NCBI GenBank assembly: GCA_001800605.1
Contig: MGVS01000070.1
Coordinates: 2,910 to 66,909 of the forward strand
Origin: Elusimicrobia bacterium RIFOXYD2_FULL_34_15
GTDB taxonomy: Bacteria > Elusimicrobiota > UBA8919
DNA: 64,000 nt
Reading direction: 5' to 3'
Numbering within the stretch: position 1 is the stretch's first letter; each line of letters starts with the position of its first letter. A program made the translations under genes and the position numbers. The notes under the pieces are model-generated. The model was not told where the DNA came from. It worked only from the letters and a program-made list of their open reading frames with translations, and ran no database searches. Shown one piece after another: positions 516 to 58,402 of the stretch.

Positions 516-614
516 GATTATGATTATTCAAAACCAATAATCGATGATTACAGTGATACTACTTTCAAGTCCTAATCTGTGTAATCTTTGTTTTAATCTG
601 TGTAATCTCTTCTA

Positions 615-3886: not shown

Positions 3887-5149
3887 TTATAATGACCATC
3901 TAGGAGACAATTCTTTCCACGATTCTCTTACAGGTTTTGCTGTTGATGTAGTTTTTATGTTTTGGGCACAGGTTTTATCATAATATATTGTAGGTGTTCC
4001 GCCTCCAAGTGCAGTACCCCGAACTATAACAACTCCGTAAATATTAGGATTTGCGCTGGCGGTACATGTGCCATATACATATATTAATCCTCTGAAGCAA
4101 GGCTTGGTTATTGAAAAATCTTTAATTTGATGGTATCCGCCGTCACCGTCATATTGATTCTGATCAGTATTGTCAGGTTCAATGCCACCGGTATTAGGGG
4201 TATCAACACAATATTCTTTCCAGGCATTTACATGAGGAGTAGCTAAATAATCATCTCCTTTATTACTTGATTCAATGGTCAAATTACCTTTAACTATTAA
4301 ATTACCGTAAACATTGCAAGATTTTAATGTACAGTTGGCTTCCGTATAGTAAGTAGTAAAGGTTGTAGAAAATGCTTCTTTATATGGACCAGAGGAGCCG
4401 CCACCGGCATATGCACCTGTTAAGTCCAAATTACCAACTAAGTAGGTAGGTGTTGCCGGATTTGCAGTAGTATATGCTTGTGCATCCGTTTTGTAATCTG
4501 AAGTTATTTCAGGTATTTCCGCAACCTCAAATTCGTCATGCCATTCACGAAATTCATCATCTAAAGCGGAAGGTCCGGATGTCGGTGCGCCAGGTGTTGG
4601 GTCATTATGATTATGTCCGGCGCTACCGCAGGATATCTGACCACGAGAATATTTTCTTGGGTAAAAATTATCAGCTGAACCGCTTAAACTTATACCTAAA
4701 GTAGAAGAAACAGGCCCCCAATTAATTACAAAATTTCCGGTTACGGATATTCCGGGAGCAATCAATGCTGATGATACACCCGGTGTTTTAGAATAAATCG
4801 CCTGAATTGTTCTGCATTCATCTGTAGCTTGATCTTTTCCTGAAGATAGTATAGTTATCTGATTATCAGAAGGACCGCTTGAGAATTTTATTCTGTAATA
4901 ACCGCCTTCAACATCGGAATATGTTGAATCAGTACTGCTTCCGGTATAACCAGGGATTGCAGTTCCTAAAACAGCTATATCCCAAATGCCTGATTCATTT
5001 AATTTAAAAATACCTCTGTCTATTCCCGCTTCAGCGAGATGAAAAGCCCTTGTAGATTTTGTTTGCTTGGTAATTGATTTTGCTTCAAAAGTTGACATAT
5101 AGACAAGTGCCGGTATGACAACCCCTATAATCATAGCAATGATTAACAT
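3887..5149 (-). CDS. Type IV pilus minor pilin / assembly protein, PilX-like. The start is most likely the internal ATG at 5149. The longer ORF to 5314 reads through an intergenic repeat.
   Basis: A hydrophobic N-terminal segment (MLIIAMIIGVVIPALV) is followed by STRAFHLAEAGIDRG, resembling the PilX_N motif (RAF.AAEAGLE). The ORF-track N-terminal extension IRSRYTHKRYRSGFTRITTQ is encoded by the ATCTGCGT repeat family. Confidence 0.5.
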   Translation of the reverse strand: MLIIAMIIGVVIPALVYMSTFEAKSITKQTKSTRAFHLAEAGIDRGIFKLNESGIWDIAVLGTAIPGYTGSSTDSTYSDVEGGYYRIKFSSGPSDNQITILSSGKDQATDECRTIQAIYSKTPGVSSALIAPGISVTGNFVINWGPVSSTLGISLSGSADNFYPRKYSRGQISCGSAGHNHNDPTPGAPTSGPSALDDEFREWHDEFEVAEIPEITSDYKTDAQAYTTANPATPTYLVGNLDLTGAYAGGGSSGPYKEAFSTTFTTYYTEANCTLKSCNVYGNLIVKGNLTIESSNKGDDYLATPHVNAWKEYCVDTPNTGGIEPDNTDQNQYDGDGGYHQIKDFSITKPCFRGLIYVYGTCTASANPNIYGVVIVRGTALGGGTPTIYYDKTCAQNIKTTSTAKPVRESWKELSPRWSL

Positions 5150-5291
5150 TATGACTACAACCTGACCTTTTGAAGAACTCGAAGCTGACTTACGCTGAAC
5201 AATACGCTGATTGACGCAGACAAAATCAGTGTTTATCTGCGTTGTAATCCGCGTGAATCCGCTTCTATATCTTTTATGCGTGTATCTGCTT

Positions 5292-5690
5292 CTAATCTTT
5301 TCTAGCTTTATCATAAATTCGTCTCCGGATTTCTAATTTCTTGCTTCCAAAATTTATTAGTAAACCTAATTTATAATTACTTGCTTTTAGATAATACCAA
5401 AATTGTTTTTCATGTTCTTTTGTTATAAACGGCTGGCATTTAATTTCTATTAGGATTTTTTCATTAATAATTTTATCCGGAATGTAAGTTCCAACTTTAT
5501 TTTCATGATAATAAATATCTATTCTTTTTTGTTCTTCTACTTTAAGTCCTTGTTTTAATAATTCTAAACCAAGAGCGTTATCAACGATTGATTCCTTAAA
5601 TGCACCGTGAAATTCTTTCCAAATTTCGAAACATGCTCCTCTTATTTTATAAGTTTCTTTTTCGTATAAAAAATCCCCCATTTTTTTCAT
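5292..5690 (-). CDS. GxxExxY family protein (PD-(D/E)xK-fold, TIGR04256-like selfish small gene)
   Basis: N-terminal FLYEKETYKIRGACFEIWKEFHGAF matches the GxxExxY signature, and the C-terminal LINFGSKKLEIRR matches too. Its stop codon TAG is supplied by the repeat motif ATCTGCTTCTA. Confidence 0.7.
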   Translation of the reverse strand: MKKMGDFLYEKETYKIRGACFEIWKEFHGAFKESIVDNALGLELLKQGLKVEEQKRIDIYYHENKVGTYIPDKIINEKILIEIKCQPFITKEHEKQFWYYLKASNYKLGLLINFGSKKLEIRRRIYDKARKD

Positions 5691-5692
5691 CA

Positions 5693-5830
5693 GCTTAGAT
5701 CAGCGTTGCTATCAGCGTGTATCTGCTTCCATGCCCTTTCCGCGTAAATCTGCGTTCCAATCTGCGTAGATCTGCTTCAACGCACTTTCCGCGTAAATCT
5801 GCGTTCCAATCTGCGTAGATCTGCTTCTAT
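5693..5830. repeat. Repeat block of the ATCTGCGT/ATCTGCTTC family. It includes a perfect tandem duplication of a 43-nt unit, CTTTCCGCGTAAATCTGCGTTCCAATCTGCGTAGATCTGCTTC, at 5736-5778 and 5785-5827 (period 49).
   Basis: Direct reading of the sequence. Identical copies are separated by AACGCA. Confidence 0.8.
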
Positions 5831-5837
5831 GAATTTA

Positions 5838-6365
5838 TCAGTTCATTATACGTACTTTGGCAGTTGAAAGTTGAAGTGCTTTTGTATTTTGATTATATGT
5901 TTTCTTTTCAAAAGTAATGGAAACATTTACTATGGAATCTTCCGATGTTTCCGGATAAGTAAATGAAATACATCTTAGAGATTTTGCCAACGATATAGTT
6001 GAATTTATTACTTCATAAAGTGTCTGATCCTGTTGATAATATACATATATCTGGTTATTTTTTGTAAATGATATCCTAGAATAAGGCGGTTGGTTAGCAT
6101 CATACCTGTCAACTACAATAGAAGATGCGTCAGCTTGTCTAAGATTCTTGTTAATCGCATTAATAGCAGTTCTTCCATCTCTTTGTATGTCAGTTTTTGC
6201 ACTGGATAATTGCCAGAACTGAATAAATTTTAAAAATAATGATGTCAGAGCCATTGCAATTATGCTTACTGATACAATGTTTATCATCAATTCTACAAGG
6301 GTAAGTCCCTTTGAGCGAGTAGATAAGTGGATATGTGGATAAGTGAATAAGTGTTTGCGTTTCAT
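5838..6365 (-). CDS. Prepilin-type N-terminal cleavage/methylation domain protein (type IV minor pilin, PilV/PilE-like)
   Basis: RSKG|LTLVELMINIVSVSIIAMALTSL is a class III signal with a G-(F/L)TL(V/I)E motif. Confidence 0.55.
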   Translation of the reverse strand: MKRKHLFTYPHIHLSTRSKGLTLVELMINIVSVSIIAMALTSLFLKFIQFWQLSSAKTDIQRDGRTAINAINKNLRQADASSIVVDRYDANQPPYSRISFTKNNQIYVYYQQDQTLYEVINSTISLAKSLRCISFTYPETSEDSIVNVSITFEKKTYNQNTKALQLSTAKVRIMN

Positions 6366-6739
6366 TTATTCCTCAAACTTTTAATTAAATTTTGTAACAT
6401 TCTGCTGATGAAAAACAAGTGTTTAGTAGTTAGGTTGTCAAGTTGATATTCAGTAATAAATTTTAGTTCCTTTGCAATAACGAGTTGTGTATGTAATTCT
6501 CCACAAGAACCAAGTGAAATATACAGGAATTGAATAATTTCAGGTTTATACTGTCGCATAAATCCTTCTGCTATATTCGATGATATTGACACTGTGGCTC
6601 TTCGTATTTGACTTGTTAAACCATAAACTTCTTCTTTTGGAAAACTTTTTGTAATCAGATATACTTCTTTCACTAACTCAATACTTTTCTGCCATACTAA
6701 TAAATCAGTATAACTTTTTACTTTATCAATACTAACCAC
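6362..6739 (-). CDS. Four-helix-bundle protein. This is the 23S rRNA intervening-sequence protein family (PF05635/TIGR02436), the same family as DGR Avd.
   Basis: KSYTDLLVWQKSIELVKEVYLITKSFPKEEVYGLTSQIRRATVSISSNIAEGF is the diagnostic family motif. The ATGA overlap with the downstream pilin gene suggests co-transcription. Confidence 0.8.
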   Translation of the reverse strand: MVSIDKVKSYTDLLVWQKSIELVKEVYLITKSFPKEEVYGLTSQIRRATVSISSNIAEGFMRQYKPEIIQFLYISLGSCGELHTQLVIAKELKFITEYQLDNLTTKHLFFISRMLQNLIKSLRNK

Positions 6740-6779
6740 TTAGCCACCCGTTTTCTCTTTCACTTAACCACTTTTTTAT

Positions 6780-9353
6780 TTATGGCCATGTGCCAGTAAA
6801 ATCTACAGTTACAGTTGAATTAGTGTCATCGACAGCTGTAGCAGTTACTCCTGTTTTAGTTTTTGTTGTTACAAAATCACCGGAAGTTTTTGTATACCAC
6901 GCCCGTAAGTTATAAGTATAACCTTTCCTTACTATTATTTCATATGTTCCGGAAGAGCCTGAAATAGAACCATAATATATATTTGCTCCGCTTCTAAATG
7001 TTGAATTGATTGTTTCGGGACTTTCTGCAGGGACCGTTCCGTTTGTCGCTATAATAAGGACACCCGTGGTTATATTGCCGCCTATCGCAGTATCACTGAC
7101 TGTCCCGATAATTTTTCCCCAGACCGATGTTATTTTAAAATTTTTGCCGGTTAAATCATCTCCTTGTGCAAGATTTATTGGAGTGGGCCAGTTGTCCTCT
7201 CTTATATAAGAGTCAGCAGAATCTAATACAGGATAAAGAACAACATCGGTTGCCGTTCTTATACCTTTTAAAGAGTATGTTCCGTCACTGCCGGAAACGG
7301 TGTCTTTTGAAAAGCCTGAGCTTGTACTTGTTGCTCTTACTGTGACAAAAGGCAATGCATCTCCTGAAGAATTTTTTGTTATTCCGGATATTTTTCCGGC
7401 CGTATATAGTTCCAGATTATCTACGGTTACGGATCTTCCTGCAGTTACTTCAATGAATTTTGTATCTTCTGTCCAATTTATATCGTCACAGTCCTGATTA
7501 GCAACTATTGTGTATGAACCTTCTGCTACTGTATAATTGTAATATCCGTTTGAATCTGTTGTTGCAGGCGAGTATCCGCTAACTGCAACTTGTATACCAG
7601 ATATACCTGTTGATGTTCCGCTGCGTATGACTCTTCCTGTGATAAATCCGCCGACTGACGGAGAAGATAATAAAACAGCGTTTATCTTATAATCTGAATG
7701 ATAAACTGGATATTTAGGTGAAGTAGAGGAATTAGGAATTGCTGTTCCAACATTGGAATTTACCGAGACATTTGCAATTTCTCTGTAATAACTACCCGAT
7801 GTAATATAAATAGACCAAGTTCCAGTAGCAACTGTAAGGGAAAAATATGCATTGGGTTTATTATTATTCTTATAGTATGCGGTAGTTGGTGAAGATAGTC
7901 CGTCGTTTGCGGATATTACAGCACCATATGCAGGTGTTCCGCTTACCGGTGGTGAAGAAGTTGAAGAATTATAAGGACAATAATTTTCAATACCATGTCT
8001 GTAATAAAAATCATAATCGTTAATATTAGAATCATATGCTCCACCGCCACGGATATCGGAAACGTATCCATAAGTTTGACCTGTAAAATGGTATCTGAAA
8101 AGTTCATGATCAGGTTCAATAGGACCATCATTACTTTTGAAACCTGTAGTTTCAGTTGCTTGTGAAGGAGGATCAGCGCCAAGTCCAGTATTTTTTCCCC
8201 ATGCTACTGAATCAATCTTGTTTGATGTTCCGGAATCATAAGAAAGAATAATTCCTCCCGGAACACTATTTTTTATGAAATCAGGATATGGACTTCCTTG
8301 ATCGTAAGTTGCGTCTGCAGTGACGCTTGTGTTATTAATATAAACAGTGCCTGTGTTTGCTATTAAGTAATAACTGAACGAAGGAACAGAAGTATTAGAA
8401 AAGCTAAGCGGAAATTCAGATAGATTATTGTCATCATAGTATAAATCAATTGATGCATCATCTATTGTCCATGCCCACGTTGTTGGATTAAATAACTGAA
8501 TGTATTCTTGTTCATGACTGTCATAATCCGTAGCTGTAACTATCAAAGAAATTAAAAGATGGTCATTAATCATCGCCCAACCTGTAACTGTTCCAGTCAA
8601 TTTTTGTGTTAATTGGATGTTTTGGTTGGCAGATACAGCAAAATTTGCAGTAGTATTGTTCCAGTAACCATCCTTTGATACAGTAAGTTGTATTGTTGCC
8701 GGAGTTGTGGTTTTAATCAGATAATAACCCGTAGAAGAAGTTTGTGAAGCCCAGTTTAGATTTTGAGCAACTTCAACTCTTGCGCTTGCGATACCTACTG
8801 CGGTTCCTGTTGTTGTTACAAGGCCATAAATTGTACCGCCTAAAGTTGTTCTGTAAGGATCATCTCTAAGGTTATATAGTACAAGCGATTTTGATTCGTT
8901 ATTTTCTGTCCAGGTTACTTCCACTTTTATTTTTTTTATACCTTCATCTGCCCCGGTCGGAGACATTGTTGATATTACTGTGTTCCCGGCATCGACTTCT
9001 TCCCGTGCACGCCAAACTGTAGTATATCTTACAAAAGTAGCATCACCGATTCTCAAAGTTTCCGGAGTATAACCTGTATAGGTTTCATCATGACCATGAT
9101 TTGCTAAATCGTCCAATGTTGTTACCAGTAATCTTGCATATGAATAGTTTTTTAAATATTCAATTTTTTCTTGTGCTAGATTATTTGCAATAGTTCTGGT
9201 TTTTGATGTAATAAGTCCTTTTCCGATTGTGCCGAAAGTTGTAATAATACCCATTATTACTATGCTTATTACAAGTATAGTAACCATTATTTCAACTTGA
9301 GAAAAACCAGAAGGTTTTTTTAATTTATAGAGTGAAAATATTTTTTCGTTCAT
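6780..9353 (-). CDS. Large (857 aa) type IV pilin-like protein with a prepilin N-terminus. Putative pilus tip or adhesin minor pilin.
   Basis: KKPSG|FSQVEIMVTILVISIVIMGII is a class III signal peptide. The body is long and S/T/G/N-rich, beta-rich and extracellular-looking. Confidence 0.5.
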   Translation of the reverse strand: MNEKIFSLYKLKKPSGFSQVEIMVTILVISIVIMGIITTFGTIGKGLITSKTRTIANNLAQEKIEYLKNYSYARLLVTTLDDLANHGHDETYTGYTPETLRIGDATFVRYTTVWRAREEVDAGNTVISTMSPTGADEGIKKIKVEVTWTENNESKSLVLYNLRDDPYRTTLGGTIYGLVTTTGTAVGIASARVEVAQNLNWASQTSSTGYYLIKTTTPATIQLTVSKDGYWNNTTANFAVSANQNIQLTQKLTGTVTGWAMINDHLLISLIVTATDYDSHEQEYIQLFNPTTWAWTIDDASIDLYYDDNNLSEFPLSFSNTSVPSFSYYLIANTGTVYINNTSVTADATYDQGSPYPDFIKNSVPGGIILSYDSGTSNKIDSVAWGKNTGLGADPPSQATETTGFKSNDGPIEPDHELFRYHFTGQTYGYVSDIRGGGAYDSNINDYDFYYRHGIENYCPYNSSTSSPPVSGTPAYGAVISANDGLSSPTTAYYKNNNKPNAYFSLTVATGTWSIYITSGSYYREIANVSVNSNVGTAIPNSSTSPKYPVYHSDYKINAVLLSSPSVGGFITGRVIRSGTSTGISGIQVAVSGYSPATTDSNGYYNYTVAEGSYTIVANQDCDDINWTEDTKFIEVTAGRSVTVDNLELYTAGKISGITKNSSGDALPFVTVRATSTSSGFSKDTVSGSDGTYSLKGIRTATDVVLYPVLDSADSYIREDNWPTPINLAQGDDLTGKNFKITSVWGKIIGTVSDTAIGGNITTGVLIIATNGTVPAESPETINSTFRSGANIYYGSISGSSGTYEIIVRKGYTYNLRAWYTKTSGDFVTTKTKTGVTATAVDDTNSTVTVDFTGTWP

Positions 9354-9392: not shown

Positions 9393-9477
9393 GATTACAC
9401 CGATTAAACAGCAAGATTACACAGATTAGATACCGACAGTAATATCCGTGTAATCGTCTTTTAAAATCTGTGTAATC
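9393..9477 (-). promoter_or_regulatory. Cluster of GATTACAC(A/C)G motifs (GATTACAC x4) upstream of the large pilin gene
   Basis: The same motif pairs occur at 573-608, 22716-22838 and 44571-44622. Each is in sense orientation upstream of a gene. Confidence 0.35.
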
Positions 9478-9552
9478 AAGAGCGGTGAATGCTTTTCAAC
9501 GCTCTAATATTTATAACACAAAACACACAAAAAGTCAAGGAGTTTTTAAATT

Positions 9553-9716: not shown

Positions 9717-11632
9717 TATCTCCATGGATACCATTTTCTTTCTTCATCTTCAGGATTTTCAGTCTTTTTCTCACCGCCACCCGGTTTTATCCGGATGTTA
9801 AACCAGAATTCATAATAATTTTCTTTTTGGTCAAGAGGAATTCTTTGAATATAAGAAAAAGATGCTTCCCAACAGTGTAAATTTCTATAAACTTTTATAG
9901 CATTTTCATAATATCTGAAATTTGAAAAATTATAATTTAAAAAATCATAATTTAAAGATGTCTGCATTTTATATGCAATTTCCCAGTTTTTTGTTGGTCT
10001 AATTCCGGTTTCTGCAAAGGTGGTAAGTTTGCCCGGAGCAGCAAGGTTATAAGATACTCCGTTTTTTAAATAAGCATTTCCCTTAAAATTTATATTTGTA
10101 TCTAATTGTACGGAATTTGGTTTTCTGAATAATACGTTATAATCATTTCTATAGTAGACATTAAAAAATCTGTATGGGCTATAATCAATTTCAGTAGTTA
10201 TGCCTTCTAAACGTTCTCTAAAAGATATTATTTTTTCATTAAGCGCTCTGCGTATATTAAGTGCTGTAAAACCTCTAACAGTTAGATTATTCAAATATAC
10301 GGATTGAATTGTTCTTATCTTGTTTGTTAATACTCCATGATAATCATCATGCCGTAAATCAGGTTGTTGTTCAAATTCATGGATAAATTGGTGGTCAAAA
10401 ATTCTGGTTGAGCGTATATCCAAATCTAAATTTGTCCTGTATCGCCATGAATAAACATTTTTTTCTCTCGCAGTAATTTCGTCTCTATCTTTCCAAAATT
10501 GCTTATATCCTACTGCGGAGGTTAGTGTAATCCTTCTTGAAATAGAAAGCGGATTGGAAAATTTGATATCACCGGTTGCACCGGTTGTATAGGCACCGGT
10601 GGAAATAATTGACTTATCCCATGACCTTGCTCCGCTTAGATTTAATTCGTAATAAAGCGGTAATTTTTTTATTTTTATTTGCCTGGTCGCAAAAGATACT
10701 GCAGGAACAGATAGGGAATTCAAGATATAAATATTTTTGTTATTATCAAAGACATCACTTCTTGCAAATGTGATACGGGTTGTTGTTTGCTCTTTGTTTT
10801 TTGTAAGTGAAATCGAAGAATCTAAACTATTATAAATTTTTATCCAGTCATTTGTATAATATGCGTTAAATGACTCGTCGCTTGCATAATTTGAATTAAT
10901 TTGAGCAATCCAGTTTTGGCCTAAATTCTGCCAGTGATAAACCCTTGAATTCCACCTGATTTGTCCGGGTTTAGATGCGAAATTTTTTCCTTTAATTCTA
11001 TATCCATAAATTGTCCCGTTAACTTTGCCTTCATCTTTATAGAAAATTTCCCCTCCAGTTCCGATACCATTTATGGTAAAGTAATCAAGATAAAGTTTCC
11101 CGTAGATATATTCTGAAAGCGGATACCCAAGCATACCTTTTGCAAAAAATCCGTCGCGATTATTATAACCCGGCTTAATTTCAATTTTGTATTTTCTTTG
11201 TTTTAAATTTTTGTAATAGTATGGAAGTATTGCTGAAGGAATATCTCCTAGAAATAATACGACGTTTGTTGCGGTTATTCTTTTATTGACTATAAGGCTG
11301 GCACTTCTTGCATAATATTTGTAGTGCGGATTTTCGAGGTCACAAGTAGTGAAATAAATTCTTTTCAACAAAAGCTCTTGTGTTTTTTGATATGCTTCCA
11401 CAGAATCGCAGTTTAAATATGTATCCGTAGTTTTTAATTTTACATTGCCTGAAAAAATAGTTTTCCCTTGTAATTTATCAAACTGAACTTTATCGGAAGT
11501 TATATTGACTTCCTGCTCGCAATATAAATAAGTAACGGGTAACGAGTAACGGGTAACGAAAAGAACAGTAATGAGTAATGAGTAACGGGTAACGGGTAAT
11601 AAGATTATAAATAGTTTTTTTATATGTTTCAT
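9713..11632 (-). CDS. lptD: LPS-assembly protein LptD (OstA family)
   Basis: An OstA-like N-domain (NITSDKVQFDKLQGKTIFSGNVKL) is followed by a long beta-barrel body. The N-terminal signal region LPVTRYSLLITVLFVTRYSLPVTYL is encoded by the GTAACGGGTAACGAG repeat. Confidence 0.7.
   Translation of the reverse strand: MKHIKKLFIILLPVTRYSLLITVLFVTRYSLPVTYLYCEQEVNITSDKVQFDKLQGKTIFSGNVKLKTTDTYLNCDSVEAYQKTQELLLKRIYFTTCDLENPHYKYYARSASLIVNKRITATNVVLFLGDIPSAILPYYYKNLKQRKYKIEIKPGYNNRDGFFAKGMLGYPLSEYIYGKLYLDYFTINGIGTGGEIFYKDEGKVNGTIYGYRIKGKNFASKPGQIRWNSRVYHWQNLGQNWIAQINSNYASDESFNAYYTNDWIKIYNSLDSSISLTKNKEQTTTRITFARSDVFDNNKNIYILNSLSVPAVSFATRQIKIKKLPLYYELNLSGARSWDKSIISTGAYTTGATGDIKFSNPLSISRRITLTSAVGYKQFWKDRDEITAREKNVYSWRYRTNLDLDIRSTRIFDHQFIHEFEQQPDLRHDDYHGVLTNKIRTIQSVYLNNLTVRGFTALNIRRALNEKIISFRERLEGITTEIDYSPYRFFNVYYRNDYNVLFRKPNSVQLDTNINFKGNAYLKNGVSYNLAAPGKLTTFAETGIRPTKNWEIAYKMQTSLNYDFLNYNFSNFRYYENAIKVYRNLHCWEASFSYIQRIPLDQKENYYEFWFNIRIKPGGGEKKTENPEDEERKWYPWRY
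11523..11605. repeat. GTAACGGGTAACGAGTAACG-family tandem repeats, here inside the 5' end of lptD
   Basis: aacgggtaacgagtaacgggtaacgaaaagaacagtaatgagtaatgagtaacgggtaacgggtaat. Family members occur at 16745-16785, 17205-17260, 21050-21100, 24060-24095, 25605-25690 and 48570-48760. Confidence 0.8.
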
Positions 11633-21629: not shown

Positions 21630-21689
21630 TGTTTTGATTTTTAAAAAACCCAAAAATCATAGAGATCGTTGAAGACTTTTTCAACGGTC

Positions 21690-22181
21690 TCATTGTTTAA
21701 TCTCGGATATATCCGTTAAAAATTTTTCAATAAGCTGGTTTTGTGTACTTTTATCCATAGTTTTATCTAATATTTTTTCAGCTATGGATATAGCTATTGG
21801 AACAATTTCTTTTCTTAAATCACTTTTTACCGACTCTCTTTCTTGTTCCATCTGTTTTTTAGCTAAATCGAGTATTTTCTTAGCTTCATCCCGTGCTTCT
21901 GTGATTAGCTGCTGTTTTTGGGTTTCGGCAGTAGAAGATGCTTTTTCAAGAAGTTCTTTTGCCTTTTTATCTATATCAATTATCATCTGTTCATAATTTA
22001 CTTTAAGTCTTTCAGTTTCTTGTTTAAAATTTTCCGAGTCGGAAATATTTTTAGCAATATCATTCTTTCTCTTAAATAAAATTTGAACAAGCGGTTTCCA
22101 TGCAATTTTCCATAGTATGAGAATACCTATTAAAAAAGTTACAATTTGAACCAAAATAATCTTTAAATCAATTTCTAACAT
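21690..22181 (-). CDS. atpF: F0F1 ATP synthase subunit b
   Basis: Single N-terminal TM helix then a long charged coiled coil. Position in the operon fits. Confidence 0.75.
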   Translation of the reverse strand: MLEIDLKIILVQIVTFLIGILILWKIAWKPLVQILFKRKNDIAKNISDSENFKQETERLKVNYEQMIIDIDKKAKELLEKASSTAETQKQQLITEARDEAKKILDLAKKQMEQERESVKSDLRKEIVPIAISIAEKILDKTMDKSTQNQLIEKFLTDISEIKQ

Positions 22182-22195
22182 AATACCCTTAATCG

Positions 22196-22312
22196 ATGAA
22201 CGAGGGAGTCGTTGAGGAATGCCCTCACGGAGTTCCGCTTACGCATTCAGCGGAACGAGTGGGGACGGCCCCACCAGGGGACCGTGTGCTGACGAAACGA
22301 ACTCCCGAGCGA
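22196..22312 (-). ncRNA. GC-rich (about 60%) structured element, about 117 nt, between atpE and atpF. Multiple stem-loops, candidate structured RNA of unknown class.
   Basis: Hairpins gttccgct-tacgcattc-agcggaac, gggg-acgg-cccc, cccc-acca-gggg and tgagg-aatgc-cctca, plus a closing pairing gggagt.../...actccc. Surrounding DNA is under 30% GC. Confidence 0.3.
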
Positions 22313-22315
22313 ATG

Positions 22316-22693
22316 CTATTGGATGAAATACTTCGTAAACGGATTTGCAAATAAAAGAATTATACTTATAAATAGTACATATAAAACCAATGATTCAATG
22401 AATGCAAGACCGATAATCATAGATAACTGTAATTGTGCACCGGCTTCAGGCTGACGAGCTATTCCTTCCAATGCTTTTCTAATTGAAAACATTTGTGAAA
22501 GTGCTCCCGCGACGGCAACAATCACTAGTCCAGAGCTTGCAACAACAACTGATTTTGTAAAAAAATCAGCTGCTCCGGGTGCTAAAGTTACAGCAGTTGC
22601 AGCCGTTGATTCAGCAGCACCAAACACAAGTGATGAAATTGATACTACAATTAAAGAACCAAAAAAACCATAAATCCAATACCCTTTTTTCAT
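22316..22693 (-). CDS. atpE: F0F1 ATP synthase subunit c, with an N-terminal hydrophobic extension of about 45 aa
   Basis: C-terminal 75 aa, GLVIVAVAGALSQ...ARQPEAG..L...IGLAFIESLVLY, form a typical c-subunit hairpin with the conserved carboxylate (E). Confidence 0.8.
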   Translation of the reverse strand: MKKGYWIYGFFGSLIVVSISSLVFGAAESTAATAVTLAPGAADFFTKSVVVASSGLVIVAVAGALSQMFSIRKALEGIARQPEAGAQLQLSMIIGLAFIESLVLYVLFISIILLFANPFTKYFIQ

Positions 22694-22715: not shown

Positions 22716-22838
22716 GATTACAGGGATTTAAGCTGCTGATTACGGGGATTAATCATCATAATCCTCTGGCCCCTTAATCACTGTAACCGTTTTGTTTTTA
22801 ATCTGTGTAATCGTCTCTCAAAATCTGTGTAATCAGAC
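22716..22838 (-). promoter_or_regulatory. GATTACA(G/C) / AATCTGTGTAATC motif cluster upstream of atpE
   Basis: aatctgtgtaatcgtctctcaaaatctgtgtaatcagac. Same paired motif as at 573-608. Confidence 0.35.
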
Positions 22839-25711: not shown

Positions 25712-25771
25712 TGGTTTTATATTAGATTGAATAATTTTTAACTTTTAACTTTTAATTTTTAATTGCTTTTA

Positions 25772-28114: not shown

Positions 28115-28176
28115 TATTCACCTCGCATTATTAGGGTTTGCTGAAAAACTCAGCAGACCCTCAAAAATCAGTATAA

Positions 28177-29829
28177 TCATTTCAAAATAGCGCCTAAGTC
28201 TGCTGATGTTACAAGCTTTGCATATCTTGAAAGCCAACCTGTCTTTATTTTTGGTTCTATCACTTTTTTTCTTGCTAAACGCAGTTTTATTTCAACATCA
28301 GTAAGTCTTACGACTATTTTTCTATTTGGTATATCAATTGTTATCTCTTCACCGTCTTTTATAACTCCTATAACACCGCCTGCTATTGCTTCGGGCGAAA
28401 TGTGTCCGATACACGGACCGCGGGTCCCGCCTGAAAATCTGCCATCAGTAATCAGTGCAACAGATTCAGAAAGTCCCATGCCAACTATCGCGGAAGTCGG
28501 TGAAAGCATTTCCCTCATTCCCGGACCGCCTTTTGGACCTTCATTTCGTATTACAAGCACGTCTCCTTTTTTGACTTTTTTCAGAGTGATTAGGTTCATT
28601 GCTGATTCTTCCGATTCGCAAATTCGTGCTGTTCCGGTAAATTTTAACATTTTGGAACTAACAGCAGATTGTTTTACAACACAGCCGTTAGGTGCAAGAT
28701 TTCCAAATAATATTGCAATTCCGCCTGTTTGATTATATGGTTTATTTAAAGGTCTTATTACATCAGAATTTTTTACTTCACCCTCTTTAATAATTTCGGA
28801 AATGCGCAATCCTGAAACGGTCGGATTATCGTTCAATTTATTTTTTAATACTGACATAACAGCAGAAATTCCGCCTGCATTTTCAAGATCTTCCATATAA
28901 TAATCACCTGCGGGTTCCAGTTTGACAATATTAGGAGTTTTCTTTGAAATTTCATCAAAAAGAGTAAGCGGTAGTTTCTTTCCGCATTCATTTGCTATTG
29001 CAGGAAGATGCAAAACTGTATTGGTTGAACCGCCAAGAGCCATATCCATAACTATCGCATTATGAAAAGCTTCACTGGTCATTATTCTCCTGGGCAATAT
29101 TTGCTTATTTATAAGTTCAACTATACGTACTCCGGAATCATACGCAATTCTTCTTTTTTTACTTGATGCCGCTAAAGCGGTACCGCATCCGGGTAAAGAC
29201 ATACCCATAGTTTCCGTTAAGCATGCCATAGTATTGGCTGTATAAAGGCCCTGACAGCTTCCTGCCCCCGGACATGCGCACATTTCTAATTCTTCAAGTT
29301 CACAATCTTTTATTTTTTTTGCACGGAAAAGCCCAACAGCTTCAAAAGAGTCACGAACCAGAGAACGTCTTTTTCCGTTATAAAAACCGGTCATCATCGG
29401 ACCTGCGGTTACGACTATAGAAGGAATATTTAATCTACCCGCTGCCATAAGCATTCCGGGAGTTATTTTATCACAATTAGTTAAAAATACCAGACCGTCT
29501 AATTTGTGCGCATTTGCTACTGATTCGATGCAATCTGCAATAAGTTCTCTTGAAGGTAATGAATAACACATTCCGGAATGACCCATCGCAATGCCATCAC
29601 ATATCGCCGGAAGTCCAAAGATGAAAGGTGTCCCTCCGCCCGCTTCAACACCTCTTTCAATAAATCTTTCCAAATCTCGCATCCCGATATGGCCGGGAAC
29701 CAAATCAGAAAAACTAGAAGCTATGCCGATAAACGGTTTATGAACCGATTTTTTCGTAATACCAGTCGCATAAATTAAACATCTGTTAGGTGCTCTTTCA
29801 ACGCTTTTTTTGACTTCATCACTTCGCAT
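28177..29829 (-). CDS. ilvD: Dihydroxy-acid dehydratase
   Basis: [12 protein letters not shown] and [14 protein letters not shown] are ILVD/EDD signatures. Confidence 0.95.
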
Positions 29830-44544: not shown

Positions 44545-44571
44545 ACTATTTTTAAAATAAAAATAGTTTTG
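44544..44571 (+). terminator. AT-only hairpin AACTATTTTT-AAAAT-AAAAATAGTT followed by TTG after the PBP1A stop. Weak intrinsic terminator candidate.
   Basis: Perfect 10-bp inverted repeat read from the sequence. Confidence 0.3.
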
Positions 44572-44622
44572 ATTACACACCTGCCTGCCGGCAGGCAGGG
44601 ATTTTAAAAGCTGATTACACAG
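44571..44622 (+). promoter_or_regulatory. Two GATTACACA(G) direct repeats flanking a perfect 20-bp GC palindrome CCTGCCTGCCGGCAGGCAGG. Then TATAAAT, AGGAGG and a GTG start for the DUF2148 gene.
   Basis: gattacacacctgcctgccggcaggcagggattttaaaagctgattacacagatatataaat...gagaggaggtttgtGTG. Confidence 0.4.
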
Positions 44623-44651
44623 ATATATAAATATTATGAGAGGAGGTTTGT

Positions 44652-45182
44652 GTGATTGTAAAATCTAATGAATCGGAAAAGAATGCAATTATGAATATTG
44701 CAAATTTAATGTGTCTCGCAGCAAGAACCGCTCCAAAAGCGAGAGGCATAGACAACATTGTAACCATAATATTAACCGACAAAGAAAAAGAAGGACTTGT
44801 AAATAAAATGATAGAAGTTGCAAATAGCGGTTATCGGACAAACACTTTTTTAAGAGATTCTGAGTGTGTAAGAAAATCTGCTGCAATAGTTATAATTGGA
44901 ACGAAAATTTCTACAATAGGATTAGACTGCGGTTTCTGCGGATTTGAAAATTGTAAGAAATGCGAAGAAATGAAAGGTGTATGTGCATATAATTCCGGAG
45001 ATTTAGGAATCGCTCTCGGGTCTGCAGTTTCCGTTGCTGCTGATAATAGAATTGATAATAGGATCATTTACACAGCAGGTTATGCTGCAGTTAAAAATAA
45101 TATATTAGGCGATAATATTAAAATTGCTTTTGGAGTACCGCTTTCAGCAACCGGAAAAAATATATTCTTTGATAGGAAATAA
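44652..45182 (+). CDS. DUF2148-like Cys-rich ferredoxin-domain protein
   Basis: GLDCGFCGFENCKKCEEMKGVC. GTG start with AGGAGG 6 nt upstream. Confidence 0.5.
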   Translation: MIVKSNESEKNAIMNIANLMCLAARTAPKARGIDNIVTIILTDKEKEGLVNKMIEVANSGYRTNTFLRDSECVRKSAAIVIIGTKISTIGLDCGFCGFENCKKCEEMKGVCAYNSGDLGIALGSAVSVAADNRIDNRIIYTAGYAAVKNNILGDNIKIAFGVPLSATGKNIFFDRK

Positions 45183-56328: not shown

Positions 56329-57474
56329 TTATTCTAAATAATTTTCTTGAAATTCATCAAAACCATCAATTTTTGTAAAATCAATATTAAAATTATTTTT
56401 ATCTATTTTTGTTATTCTAACACTATCAATTCCTATTATTTTTAACTTTTCATATGTTAGTAGTTCGTCTTCTTTTAATTTTAGAACTTTTCTTAAAAGC
56501 CAATCTGAAAGAGCATTATTCGGATTTGTCATCAATGCTTTTGAATTTTCCTGACAAACTTTTGCATTTAATATTTCACCAGTAGGAATATGTAAATTAA
56601 ACGATTTATCCCTTGGTGGCAAAAAATTAGGAAAGTTTTTGTGAATTTGGATTGGAATGGGAATATATACTTCTCCCGAGTCTCTTTTTCTACCACCGGC
56701 ATTCCACTGATTTAAACCGCTTTTTTCTGCAACTACTTTGTTATTTTTTTTACTTTCTCTTAATGAATATAAAGGTAAAATTATATAATCTTCTCCTGGA
56801 ACTTCTGAGGTAGGTTGTTTTATATCAATTTTTCTAAACAAAGTTAAAATTAACTCATAAGGATCTTCTAAAATCTGTATTGGTAGGTCAATTGAGTTAG
56901 TAGGAATTTCAAATTTTTTAAATAGAGTACTTTTTGAAAAATTAAAAGAATATTCATTTTTTATATCATTAAACTGAATACCTGCTATTGAAGATTTTAT
57001 ATTTCTTATTTTATTTTCATCAATTAATTCATAATCAGTTTCAAATATTTTTAGTATTTTTTTTCCACGAGCAATACAATGATAAATGGAATTTTCAACA
57101 CCATATGTTCTTATAGCAAATTTAATTCTTTCGTTTCTTAAATTAGATAAACGCAGTACTAATTTTGTATTGTCTAAATTTCTTAATTCTTTACTAAAAG
57201 CATTGAATTCGGCAATCTTTTCAATCGCATATTTTCCTTTCACGGTAAAAGTTTTTAATCCGATGCCGATATTATCTTTTTTGGCATCAAATGCTAAATC
57301 ATCTCTTGACAGGTTATCAGCATTGAAAGATTTACAAAAGATATTCTCTGCTACTCTATAATATAGATAAGGAACTTCATTGTCACTAAACAATTTTGAT
57401 AAAGAACAAATTGCTTTTAAATAGTTAAAATAAAGTTTTTTAGAATTATCTGGTTGTGATGAAATGAATATCAC
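56329..57474 (-). CDS. Putative type II restriction endonuclease (family not recognised). A possible PD-(D/E)xK core lies in the N-terminal region.
   Basis: 381-aa ORF overlapping the 3' end of the adjacent MTase gene by 29 nt, a typical R-M arrangement. N-terminal D...FDAKK. No similarity to housekeeping families. Confidence 0.45.
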   Translation of the reverse strand: MIFISSQPDNSKKLYFNYLKAICSLSKLFSDNEVPYLYYRVAENIFCKSFNADNLSRDDLAFDAKKDNIGIGLKTFTVKGKYAIEKIAEFNAFSKELRNLDNTKLVLRLSNLRNERIKFAIRTYGVENSIYHCIARGKKILKIFETDYELIDENKIRNIKSSIAGIQFNDIKNEYSFNFSKSTLFKKFEIPTNSIDLPIQILEDPYELILTLFRKIDIKQPTSEVPGEDYIILPLYSLRESKKNNKVVAEKSGLNQWNAGGRKRDSGEVYIPIPIQIHKNFPNFLPPRDKSFNLHIPTGEILNAKVCQENSKALMTNPNNALSDWLLRKVLKLKEDELLTYEKLKIIGIDSVRITKIDKNNFNIDFTKIDGFDEFQENYLE

Positions 57475-58402
57475 TTTGATAAGTCTCCTTTAGTGGTAAT
57501 TGATTTTCAATTGTTTTTTTCGAATTTAATATTCTTTCTTCTGCCAAATTACAAAATTTTTCATTTATTTCAAAACCAATATAATTTCTATTTGATACTA
57601 TACTTGCTATGGCAGTTGTACCACTTCCCATAAAAGGGTCTAAAACTATATCGTTTTCTTTAGAAGTTGTTAAAACCAAAGGTTTTATTAGTGACTCAGG
57701 ATAAGATGCTTGATGTTCTCCAAAAGGTTCTATTCCGCATCTTATTATATCTCTGTGATAATTAAGCTGTTTTGCCATATTTAAGTCAAAATAATATTTT
57801 CGTGATTTTACAAAATGAAAAATATGTTCATAAACAGGATATCTTCTATCAGGTGAATAAGAGGGAACAGGATTAGGCTTTTCCCAAATTATTTTATTGC
57901 GTAAAATCCAACCTTGTTCTTGCATTCCCATTGCAACTCTTTCAGGTAACATTAAAAGTTGTTTATATTGTAAATATTTTCCATTGGGCTTTGCAATTTT
58001 ATGTTCTTTATAATGTTTATCTGTTTTTCTTGCATATTTTCCTTTATTTCGCACAAATCCTTTTGTACCAAAATATACATCTCCAATATTTAAATAAAAA
58101 GACCCTTCTTTATTTAAAACTCTTTTTAATTCATTACTATATTTTAATAAATTTGTGACATATTCTAATGGATGCTCTTCTCTTCCAAGAGTTTCATTCC
58201 CGTAGATCCTGCATCCAAAATATGGTGGACTTGTAATAATTAAATTAACAAAATTATCTGGCAATTCTTTTATTAATTTTAAAGAGTCTCCACAGATGAT
58301 TTTATTAACAAAATCAATCCCATTTTTATTGAGATTCTTTGTATCATAAATAACAATATTATTTTTAAATAATAATTTTTTTCTTTTTTTCTTTTTATAC
58401 AT
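57446..58402 (-). CDS. DNA methyltransferase, beta-class amino-MTase (N4-cytosine or N6-adenine)
   Basis: Motif IV SPPY precedes motif I DPFMGSGTT. ParB-less type II solitary-size enzyme, 318 aa. Confidence 0.85.
   Translation of the reverse strand: MYKKKKRKKLLFKNNIVIYDTKNLNKNGIDFVNKIICGDSLKLIKELPDNFVNLIITSPPYFGCRIYGNETLGREEHPLEYVTNLLKYSNELKRVLNKEGSFYLNIGDVYFGTKGFVRNKGKYARKTDKHYKEHKIAKPNGKYLQYKQLLMLPERVAMGMQEQGWILRNKIIWEKPNPVPSYSPDRRYPVYEHIFHFVKSRKYYFDLNMAKQLNYHRDIIRCGIEPFGEHQASYPESLIKPLVLTTSKENDIVLDPFMGSGTTAIASIVSNRNYIGFEINEKFCNLAEERILNSKKTIENQLPLKETYQSDIHFITTR

Follow-up and report, generated by a model that had tools for sequence, protein, structure and literature searches.

Four sites in the 64,000-nucleotide stretch of the genome of Elusimicrobia bacterium RIFOXYD2_FULL_34_15 analysed here (contig MGVS01000070.1; this whole stretch is called the window below) carry phased copies of a 13-nt core, GATTAC-N3-GATT, just upstream of a gene, and a sequence-only reading had taken them for a promoter or a regulator-binding signal. 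Our results reveal that this motif is the arm signature of very small cassettes built around a gene for a GxxExxY protein, a member of the PD-(D/E)XK nucleases, that motif class and protein co-vary, and that the elements are gained and lost at fixed operon junctions among related genomes. Because the window motif equals the arms that bracket GxxExxY genes and its class co-varies with the protein, the four sites are probably miniature copies of a tiny selfish GxxExxY cassette that lack the open reading frame (ORF).

The motif occurs at all four sites well above chance, as had been claimed. The string GATTACAC is present in 11 copies in the window, compared with 1.33 expected, and none of 100 shuffled sequences reached that count; the 13-mer AATCTGTGTAATC, with up to two mismatches, is also found 11 times (2.48 expected), and pairs of cores separated by 9 nt are found four times (0.00 expected). 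When the copies are aligned in register, the unit is a core that mostly reads GATTACACAGATT and then about 9 nt of A-rich spacer. In the window, the cores are phased at 21-22 nt rather than at the 20-40 nt first described, the spacing at site 4 being inflated by a palindrome. Fifteen of the 16 core matches (up to one mismatch, 10 fixed positions) are intergenic, the intergenic share of the window being about 6.4%. Read on the plus strand, with '>' and '<' for the two orientations of the core, the layouts are '> < <' at site 1, '>> <<' at site 2, '>> <<<' at site 3 and '>>' only at site 4. Sites 1-3, with cores on both strands, are thus inverted arrays of a type that spans about 85 bp in its '>> <<' form, and the assertion that the GATTACACAG strand is the coding strand in every case fails at these three sites; the best-preserved core copies alone happen to be sense-oriented.

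The connection with the nuclease was seen from both the motif and the protein. In a search for half-arrays a few hundred bases apart, locus L070 was found to hold a 121-codon ORF exactly between a '>>' and a '<<' half-array, and its product is a GxxExxY protein (TIGR04256, PF13366 PDDEXK_3). A phmmer scan over all ORFs of the motif-fetched loci identified GxxExxY genes in L042, L055 and L070, all three directly against GATTAC arms, and also recovered the window's own copy at 5292-5690. An all-against-all BLAST of the ORFs of 115 loci returned only housekeeping families as recurrent and no transposase; the GxxExxY link escaped this comparison, as the gene is short and divergent and only three of the loci contain it. 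As these loci had been selected by the motif, an independent test was made with 80 GxxExxY homologues from metagenomes, chosen by protein similarity alone. Cores within 220 nt of the gene were present upstream in 28 of them (as '>'), downstream in 27 (as '<') and on both sides in 24, and 16 of the 17 closest homologues have GATTAC-N3-GATT cores. Beside the gene there were 3.44 cores per kb, compared with 0.10 per kb over the rest of these loci, a 34-fold difference. The cassettes follow the order core, 9 nt, core with the ATG, about 122 codons, stop codon, two right-hand cores, Shine-Dalgarno (SD) sequence and next host gene, and several of them separate rpsK from rpsD. At the left end, the last bases of the inner core supply the ATG (GATTACACGG/ATG); at the right end, the inner core shares its first bases with the TAA or TGA stop (T/TAATCTGTGTAATC).

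The flanking repeats change with the protein. Inverted 8-mers common to both flanks were found at 56 of 69 GxxExxY genes (mean 5.7), compared with 38% of mismatched pairs (mean 1.0), and other GxxExxY clades carry other flanking classes, namely ACAGGAT, CGCAGAT and ACGGAT. The nearest protein homologue had the same motif class in 47 of 58 cases; 16.4 were expected, and the maximum in 500 shuffles was 31. The ORF points the same way as the previous gene in 56 cases versus 8 and as the next gene in 52 versus 19. The proposed orientation dependence of the signal can therefore be retained where the element carries the ORF, which follows the direction of the host operon, but not for the sites in the window. 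ORF-less copies are about 50 times as numerous as ORF-carrying ones.

All four window sites lie between co-directional genes with the downstream start codon 22-40 nt away, and three of them are 6-26 nt past the upstream stop in obvious operons (nadC/birA, atpB/atpE and PBP1A/DUF2148); the observation that they stand just upstream of genes is thus confirmed. At site 1 (546..607), a miniature element separates the nadC stop (615) from the birA start (515) and lies 30 nt from the latter; it has a degenerate core, GATTACAGTGATA, at 546-558 (+) and cores at 574-586 (-) and 595-607 (-) spaced by 21 nt. Site 2 (9393..9477) is a canonical 85-bp '>> <<' element with cores at 9393 (+), 9415 (+), 9443 (-) and 9465 (-), that is, with start-to-start spacings of 22, 28 and 22 nt; it lies 39 nt upstream of a gene for an 857-aa pilin-like protein (start 9353, minus strand) and 235 nt past an LptD-like gene. 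Site 3 (22716..22834) fills the atpB-atpE junction with cores at 22716 (+), 22738 (+), 22776 (-), 22800 (-) and 22822 (-), the atpB stop being 6 nt before it and the atpE ATG 22 nt after it. Site 4 (44571..44625, plus strand) is a half element, '>>', between PBP1A and the DUF2148 gene, with an SD sequence and then, 27 nt away, the GTG start at 44652 downstream. A lone degenerate core, GATTATACTGATT, is also present at 28166-28178 (-) in the ilvB-ilvD gap, beside a hairpin, gggtttgctgaaaaactcagcagaccc, and may be a decayed element.

The odd 42-nt spacing at site 4 arises because a perfect 20-bp GC palindrome, CCTGCCTGCCGGCAGGCAGG (44580..44599), splits the first core (44571-44579 and 44600-44603, followed by the second core at 44613-44625, all on the plus strand). 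The core is broken after GATTACACA, at ACA^GATT, and GATT resumes at 44600; without the insert the spacing is 22 nt. The palindrome appears to be a second small element inserted in the core. Hairpins of the same family, CCTGCC(TGCC)..GGCAGG(CAGG), occur in metagenome-assembled genomes (MAGs) labelled as different phyla (L016, L020, L025, L026, L036, L047, L055, L064, L101, L120 and L123/L126, in addition to 44580-44599 of the window) and interrupt GATTAC cores exactly at ACA^GATT in at least four independent places (among them the window, L020, L120 and L123/L126). This hairpin family has the look of another tiny insertion element, one that prefers a particular target. Literature string searches with the core and the GC-palindrome strings returned nothing relevant.

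Comparison of orthologous junctions reveals gain and loss. In the window, the element at atpB-atpE lies between the stop codon and the SD sequence. The same junction is filled in the related locus L128 (AtpB 79% identical to that of the window), with 2+2 cores whose spacers are unrelated to the window's, and empty in L129 (AtpB 75%; gaacatTAAaaaggaggaaagggttATG) and in L130 (AtpB 71%; a short junction like that of L129), where it has the form TAA-aaaggagg-N8-ATG; in L131 (AtpB 68%) it holds a different heptamer repeat. The element is an insertion, because it is absent from atpB-atpE of two related Elusimicrobia (L129 and L130). Copies elsewhere in these relatives lie at ilvN/GNA1162, atpF/atpH and accD/folC in L128, at atpG/atpD in L129 and at accD/folC in L130, and at all of these places the window has short empty junctions or overlapping genes. 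In three relatives, the PBP1A/DUF2148 junction carries different repeat motifs or lacks repeats.

Operon junctions in these genomes hold further repeats. Tandem heptamer or octamer repeats (ATTTCGA, GTTAAAG, GATTCAA, TTGCAAC, TTGTTG and others) fill junctions at L131 5269-5321, L132 about 9880-9910, window 25712-25771 and in L017, L095 and L078, sometimes at the very junction that holds a GATTAC element in a relative; they resemble the STRR (short tandemly repeated repetitive) sequences of cyanobacteria. An intercistronic hairpin resembling GAGACCGTTGAAAAAGTCTTCAACGGTCTC recurs directly past stop codons or beside GATTAC elements (window about 21630-21689 and 9478-9510, the accD-folC gaps of L128 and L130, and the right flanks of L032 and L058). 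Between atpF and atpE, a GC-rich island of about 120 nt (22190-22316; about 60% GC, compared with 33% for the genome) has a predicted fold of -48.8 kcal/mol with a z-score of only -1.8 and is without an Rfam match.

The element is widespread. An exact-pattern scan of one genome per species retrieved more than 115 loci, and among the matches listed the record titles name Elusimicrobia, Deltaproteobacteria, Omnitrophota, Nitrospirae, Planctomycetes, Firestonebacteria, Desantisbacteria, WOR-3, groups of the Candidate Phyla Radiation (CPR), a 'Clostridia' MAG and cultured Mucilaginibacter. In the great majority of copies, ACA, ACC, GCA or AGY occupies the three free positions of the core, which places the copies in one family. 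Among the loci listed, '>> <<' is the commonest architecture (48 clusters; typically with 22/28/22 spacing and 72-117 bp long) and the others look partial; the arm spacing is 20-23 nt in 35 of 40 arms that do not themselves satisfy the search pattern, and the half-to-half distance is 17-56 nt. A few viral contigs in IMG/VR carry several copies each between capsid, portal and tail genes, and a BLAST of the consensus element against collections of plasmids and phage isolates returned chance matches only. Near-identical copies, including spacers and short flanks, stand before unrelated genes in a group of Deltaproteobacteria MAGs, which is the result of duplicative spread.

Two further observations concern repeats of related form. 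Arrays of 10-11-nt units, CGCAGATA, occur as 3+3 inverted or four direct copies immediately before an SD sequence (L130 about 5060-5130; L133 about 9945-9990); as they contain the CRCAGAT part of the core, the core family has shorter-period variants. At L081 1826-2100, the element and a 31-codon hydrophobic ORF, MADKLKTLSYFFLVTCLINIMAAVILNAFLK, are repeated in tandem, and the following element begins on the stop codon.

The sites show a real bias with respect to genes. The genes downstream are birA, the pilin-like gene, atpE and DUF2148 in the window, and flgG, thrC, rpsD, fusA, fadD, lptB, mnmA, rpiB, a sugar dehydrogenase, an epimerase and phage portal or protease genes in other genomes. In about 120 loci of other genomes, analysed with simple gene calls in which the first start codon of an ORF was taken, an element occupied 14.5% of co-directional, 12.8% of divergent and 6.0% of convergent gaps, and the downstream start was within 47 nt in 87 of 110 co-directional cases (mode 7-35 nt), these distances being lower bounds because the first start codon of the ORF was used. 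Of the elements in gaps with 150 nt or more to spare, 14 stand directly at the start and 2 at the stop, and an SD sequence with an ATG is visible within 25 nt of many elements. The bias relative to starts, proposed as a check on the sequence-only reading, thus exists. Half elements beside a start have AATCTGTGTAATC on the sense strand in 14 cases versus 1, which follows from the plain '>> <<' geometry.

Such a bias, together with cores that are conserved as sequence and a phase of 20-23 nt, about two helical turns, that fits cooperative protein binding, would be expected of operator arrays of a global DNA-binding regulator, with four phased sites before many genes forming a regulon. We nevertheless regard this as very improbable. 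The genes downstream are functionally unrelated and include phage structural genes, many sites lie within operons directly past a stop codon, and presence or absence varies among close relatives; moreover, half-to-half distances vary over the range given above and insertions of 20-170 bp are tolerated. No regulator gene recurs near the arrays, whereas the nuclease gene does. A role of the long arrays as autoregulatory sites was rejected as well, since the longest of them are followed by genes for ordinary enzymes or for phage proteins. By eye, we know of no fit of the core, beyond a few bases, to the binding sites of IHF, DnaA, Fur, WalR or omega, to the end sites of Tn7 or Mu or to the RNase E consensus.

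That the element is a promoter module, in which two copies 22 nt apart mimic a -35/-10 pair and drive the downstream gene, is hardly credible. Elements end 7-40 nt before start codons and, on reading the sequence, TGTAAT in the core resembles TATAAT; however, no sigma-70-type -35/-10 pair with a 16-18-nt spacer facing the gene was found inside the four elements. In addition, an identical motif occurs in phyla with differing promoter types, including Bacteroidota, the symmetric element would also fire antisense into the upstream gene, and it sits within atp, ribosomal-protein and phage late operons, three of the window sites themselves being inside operons. The promoter or regulator reading is thus partly supported and survives only loosely, if it is taken to mean that sites recognized by a protein stand before genes. 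The behaviour of the cores is that of sequence-specific protein-recognition sites rather than of an RNA helix or neutral DNA, and their bias towards the 5' side of genes is real, but the protein with which they travel is a mobile-element nuclease and not a regulator. Two other candidates were rejected. An element carrying its own SD sequence is found only in one subfamily of the Deltaproteobacteria MAGs, and the lone SD at atpB-atpE equals that of the empty site. Against a 12-codon micro-ORF through the left arm (ATG-ATT-ACA...TAA), the arm spacing varies by 1-3 nt, the variable core positions are amino-acid-changing and the same flanking bases recur symmetrically at the right arm.

The position of the elements in transcripts suggests a further possibility, namely an RNA-level element of polycistronic mRNA, a hairpin cut by RNase III or protecting ends and thereby tuning neighbouring cistrons such as atpB/atpE and rpsG/fusA. 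The elements are always in transcribed intercistronic or 5'-proximal places, one is kept at rpsG-fusA in five species of Sphingobacteriaceae, and the layout equals that of 23S rRNA intervening sequences, the terminal stems of which are cut by RNase III (PMC4990558). Site 2 folds into two 12-13-bp helices with a 9x9 internal loop (-34 kcal/mol, z = -5.7), but any inverted repeat folds so by construction, and the fold of site 3 is no better than that of shuffled sequence (z = -1.4). Rfam gave no window matches at gathering score, with only noise at E up to 10 for site 2 and for 22150-22350, and the four elements contain no intrinsic terminators. More importantly, selection for pairing is not seen. 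At the three variable core positions, would-be pairing partners are alike at 1.88 of 3 (outer) and 2.00 of 3 (inner), compared with 2.10 and 2.23 for neighbours in the same arm, and the sense-strand mismatches in 34 gene-oriented elements comprise 18 G-U, 18 A-C and 67 others. As partners are no more alike than neighbours and G-U equals A-C, the cores are constrained as sequence and not as a helix. The spacers of the two arms are also non-complementary, and the same junctions are empty in close relatives. We therefore consider an RNA-level role unlikely, although it need not exclude a mobile origin.

The window also contains a GxxExxY gene of its own (5292..5690, minus strand), which encodes a protein of 132 aa that matches TIGR04256 with 107.4 bits (cut-off 35) and PF13366 with 105.4 bits (cut-off 22), above the curated cut-offs and over the full model. 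This gene represents the ORF-carrying form of the element superfamily. It is bracketed by repeat arrays of the (A)CGCAGAT class (5179..5836), comprising a 49-nt repeat family at 5226-5274, 5690-5738, 5739-5787 and 5788-5836, inverted arms at 5206-5220 versus 5761-5775 and 5810-5824, and a local palindrome at 5214-5242. The residues E27, D66, E76 and K78, the PD-(D/E)XK catalytic set (E, D, E-x-K), are invariant in the alignment of homologues, and an AlphaFold2 model of the protein has a mean pLDDT (predicted local distance difference test) of 91; judged from sequence and model, the nuclease looks active. The best matches in a fold search were Cas4, restriction endonucleases and Hjc, that is, the generic PD-(D/E)XK fold only, and a sequence search of the PDB with GxxExxY found no homologue. 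Relatives 65-79% identical to the window protein are labelled as CPR phyla and Syntrophomonadaceae (Firmicutes), a few of them also match the T7 endonuclease I family, and PF13366/TIGR04256 has at least 1000 database matches at E <= 1e-8. In a survey of PD-(D/E)XK proteins, the function of PDDEXK_3 is given as 'Unknown', with a distribution in prokaryotes and viruses and multiple transfers (PMC3424549).

A second cassette lies close by. The gene at 6362-6739 (minus strand) encodes a four-helix-bundle '23S rRNA intervening-sequence protein' (TIGR02436, PF05635) and is enclosed by arms in inverted orientation (6316-6347 and 6733-6783) that consist of GTGGATAA units of 8 nt (cassette 6316..6783). 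Its architecture is that of the GxxExxY cassettes, and it sits in the pilin gene cluster, outside rRNA. The arms of the two cassettes also disturb gene calls: longest-ORF calls begin in them for ORF 3887-5314 (N-terminus 5180-5314) and ORF 5838-6365 (N-terminus 6316-6365), and the first 15-45 codons of these ORFs (for example, RITTQINTDFVCVNQRIVQ and KHLFTYPHIHLST) are probably translated repeat DNA. This explains some faulty gene calls in such genomes, in which several ORFs have spurious N-termini from repeat arms. Elsewhere in the window, a DNA methyltransferase-like gene and its neighbour (56329-58402), with small hydrophobic ORFs on both sides, lie between cysS and ispF and are possibly a restriction-modification pair, judging by a reading of their translations alone.

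For the ORF-less derivatives of a GxxExxY cassette that we propose, a simple model can be given. A full cassette of about 0.45-0.5 kb consists of two direct 13-nt cores, a gene of about 120 codons for a GxxExxY protein, a minimal PD-(D/E)XK nuclease, and two inverted cores, the cores within each arm being phased by about two turns of the DNA helix, and loss of the ORF would leave the '>> <<' element of about 85 bp. The cores may be the recognition sites of the cognate nuclease, which would drive copying or homing, and the ORF-less copies may be mobilized in trans or serve as landing sites. The position before the SD sequence could result from selection, in that surviving insertions are those that keep the stop codon, the SD sequence and the operon transcript intact, and the ORF would be expressed by read-through transcription from the host. 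The arms may pair on the mRNA, as in rRNA intervening sequences, and so make the insertion harmless, such pairing being without detectable selection.

Several points weigh against this proposal. The association of gene and arms and their co-variation would be equally expected if the gene were a mere passenger co-inherited with the arms. No cognate GATTAC-class GxxExxY gene for the four sites was found within the 64-kb window, and the GxxExxY gene that is present goes with the related (A)CGCAGAT class, which differs from GATTAC. Target-site duplications were not detected: the longest common substring of the flanks is 3.92 nt, compared with 3.77 +/- 0.13 nt in the null, and exact duplications of 2-9 bp at offsets of 0-3 were not found, so that ordinary cut-and-paste transposition is not supported. 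The window and L128 keep intact cores at atpB-atpE with wholly different spacers, which could reflect selection for a host function in place. Lastly, the 7-35-nt bias towards starts, which was obtained with crude start calling, could reflect a host-level function or positional targeting rather than selection alone.

Extending the proposal from the window to the protein family is more tentative, and we would offer it as a possibility rather than as an expectation: GxxExxY proteins, a large family of bacteria, archaea and viruses, may generally be the mobility nucleases of an undescribed class of ultra-small selfish cassettes, in which each lineage has inverted arrays of phased short repeats of its own (GATTAC, ACAGGAT, CGCAGAT or ACGGAT), inserts without target duplication into core operons (atp, ribosomal-protein and phage late operons among them) after a stop codon and ahead of the ribosome-binding site that follows, is expressed by read-through and leaves about fifty-fold more ORF-less relics, which are possible landing pads for homing. 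The findings have several consequences. An annotation trap is corrected, as an 'upstream motif' of many uncultured phyla and of Mucilaginibacter isolates is mobile-element debris and no promoter or regulon signal. A family of unknown function, PF13366/TIGR04256, is tied to a co-varying flanking DNA signature, which gives it a testable role. If the mobility is true, very small cassettes could sit in essential and phage late operons without breaking them, which bears on the use of operon junctions by selfish DNA and on the origin of rRNA intervening sequences; we know of no smaller self-contained mobile unit.

By analogy, the 23S rRNA intervening sequences are the closest described kind. These are selfish sequences with a terminal inverted-repeat stem that is cut by RNase III, and some of them carry an S23p ORF, as in Leptospira and Coxiella (PMC4990558). 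Like them, the ORF-carrying form described here is probably selfish DNA of small size (about 0.4-0.5 kb): terminal inverted repeats able to form a stem enclose a short ORF, the element sits in a highly transcribed unit that it leaves functional, and its distribution is sporadic, with horizontal transfer; the PF05635 cassette of the window shows this very layout, and the four GATTAC sites are ORF-less. The differences are that the ORF here encodes a PF13366/TIGR04256 nuclease rather than the S23p four-helix bundle (PF05635), that the arms are phased 13-nt direct repeats rather than one continuous 28-bp stem, that the sites are mRNA operon junctions rather than helix 25 or 45 of 23S rRNA, and that ORF-less copies prevail by about 50:1.

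Other classes of repeats share some of these features. Repetitive extragenic palindromic (REP) sequences, including bacterial interspersed mosaic elements (BIMEs) and the REPINs (REP doublets forming hairpins) that go with REP-associated tyrosine transposases (RAYTs), are likewise short, multicopy and palindromic, often lie between co-directional genes, have no target-site duplication and are thought to depend on a single-copy gene for a cognate enzyme that is itself flanked by the repeats. However, a REP is a GC-rich imperfect palindrome with a 5' GTAG, whereas each arm here consists of two direct AT-rich cores and does not fold on itself; the flanked gene is GxxExxY rather than a Y1 (HUH) RAYT transposase; and the motif is common to many phyla, whereas REPs are species-specific. 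The elements here favour gene starts and avoid convergent gaps, whereas REPs favour the 3' ends of genes. Miniature inverted-repeat transposable elements (MITEs) such as the Correia/NEMIS elements of Neisseria are also inverted-repeat elements of about 100 bp, present as many dispersed ORF-less copies of a coding parent, polymorphic for insertion between relatives and co-transcribed with their neighbours, and the elements here likewise are small and numerous, end in inverted repeats and are polymorphic for insertion. In contrast to MITEs, the present elements lack a target-site duplication, have two phased binding-site-like cores at each end, and have as their parent a 120-aa PD-(D/E)XK nuclease instead of a DDE transposase.

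Homing endonuclease genes, free-standing or intron-borne, include PD-(D/E)XK types such as I-Ssp6803I. They too are small selfish nuclease genes with a patchy distribution, horizontal transfer and occupied and empty versions of a site, and the GxxExxY nuclease has intact catalytic residues; however, the cassettes here have inverted arrays of their own and many unrelated sites per genome, and are without an intron or intein. Finally, the attC sites of integrons resemble the elements in having two plus two protein-binding boxes inverted around a variable centre, directly past a stop codon with the next ORF close behind, but in attC only the structure is conserved, whereas here it is the sequence, with no integrase or cassette array and with housekeeping operons as the flanks.

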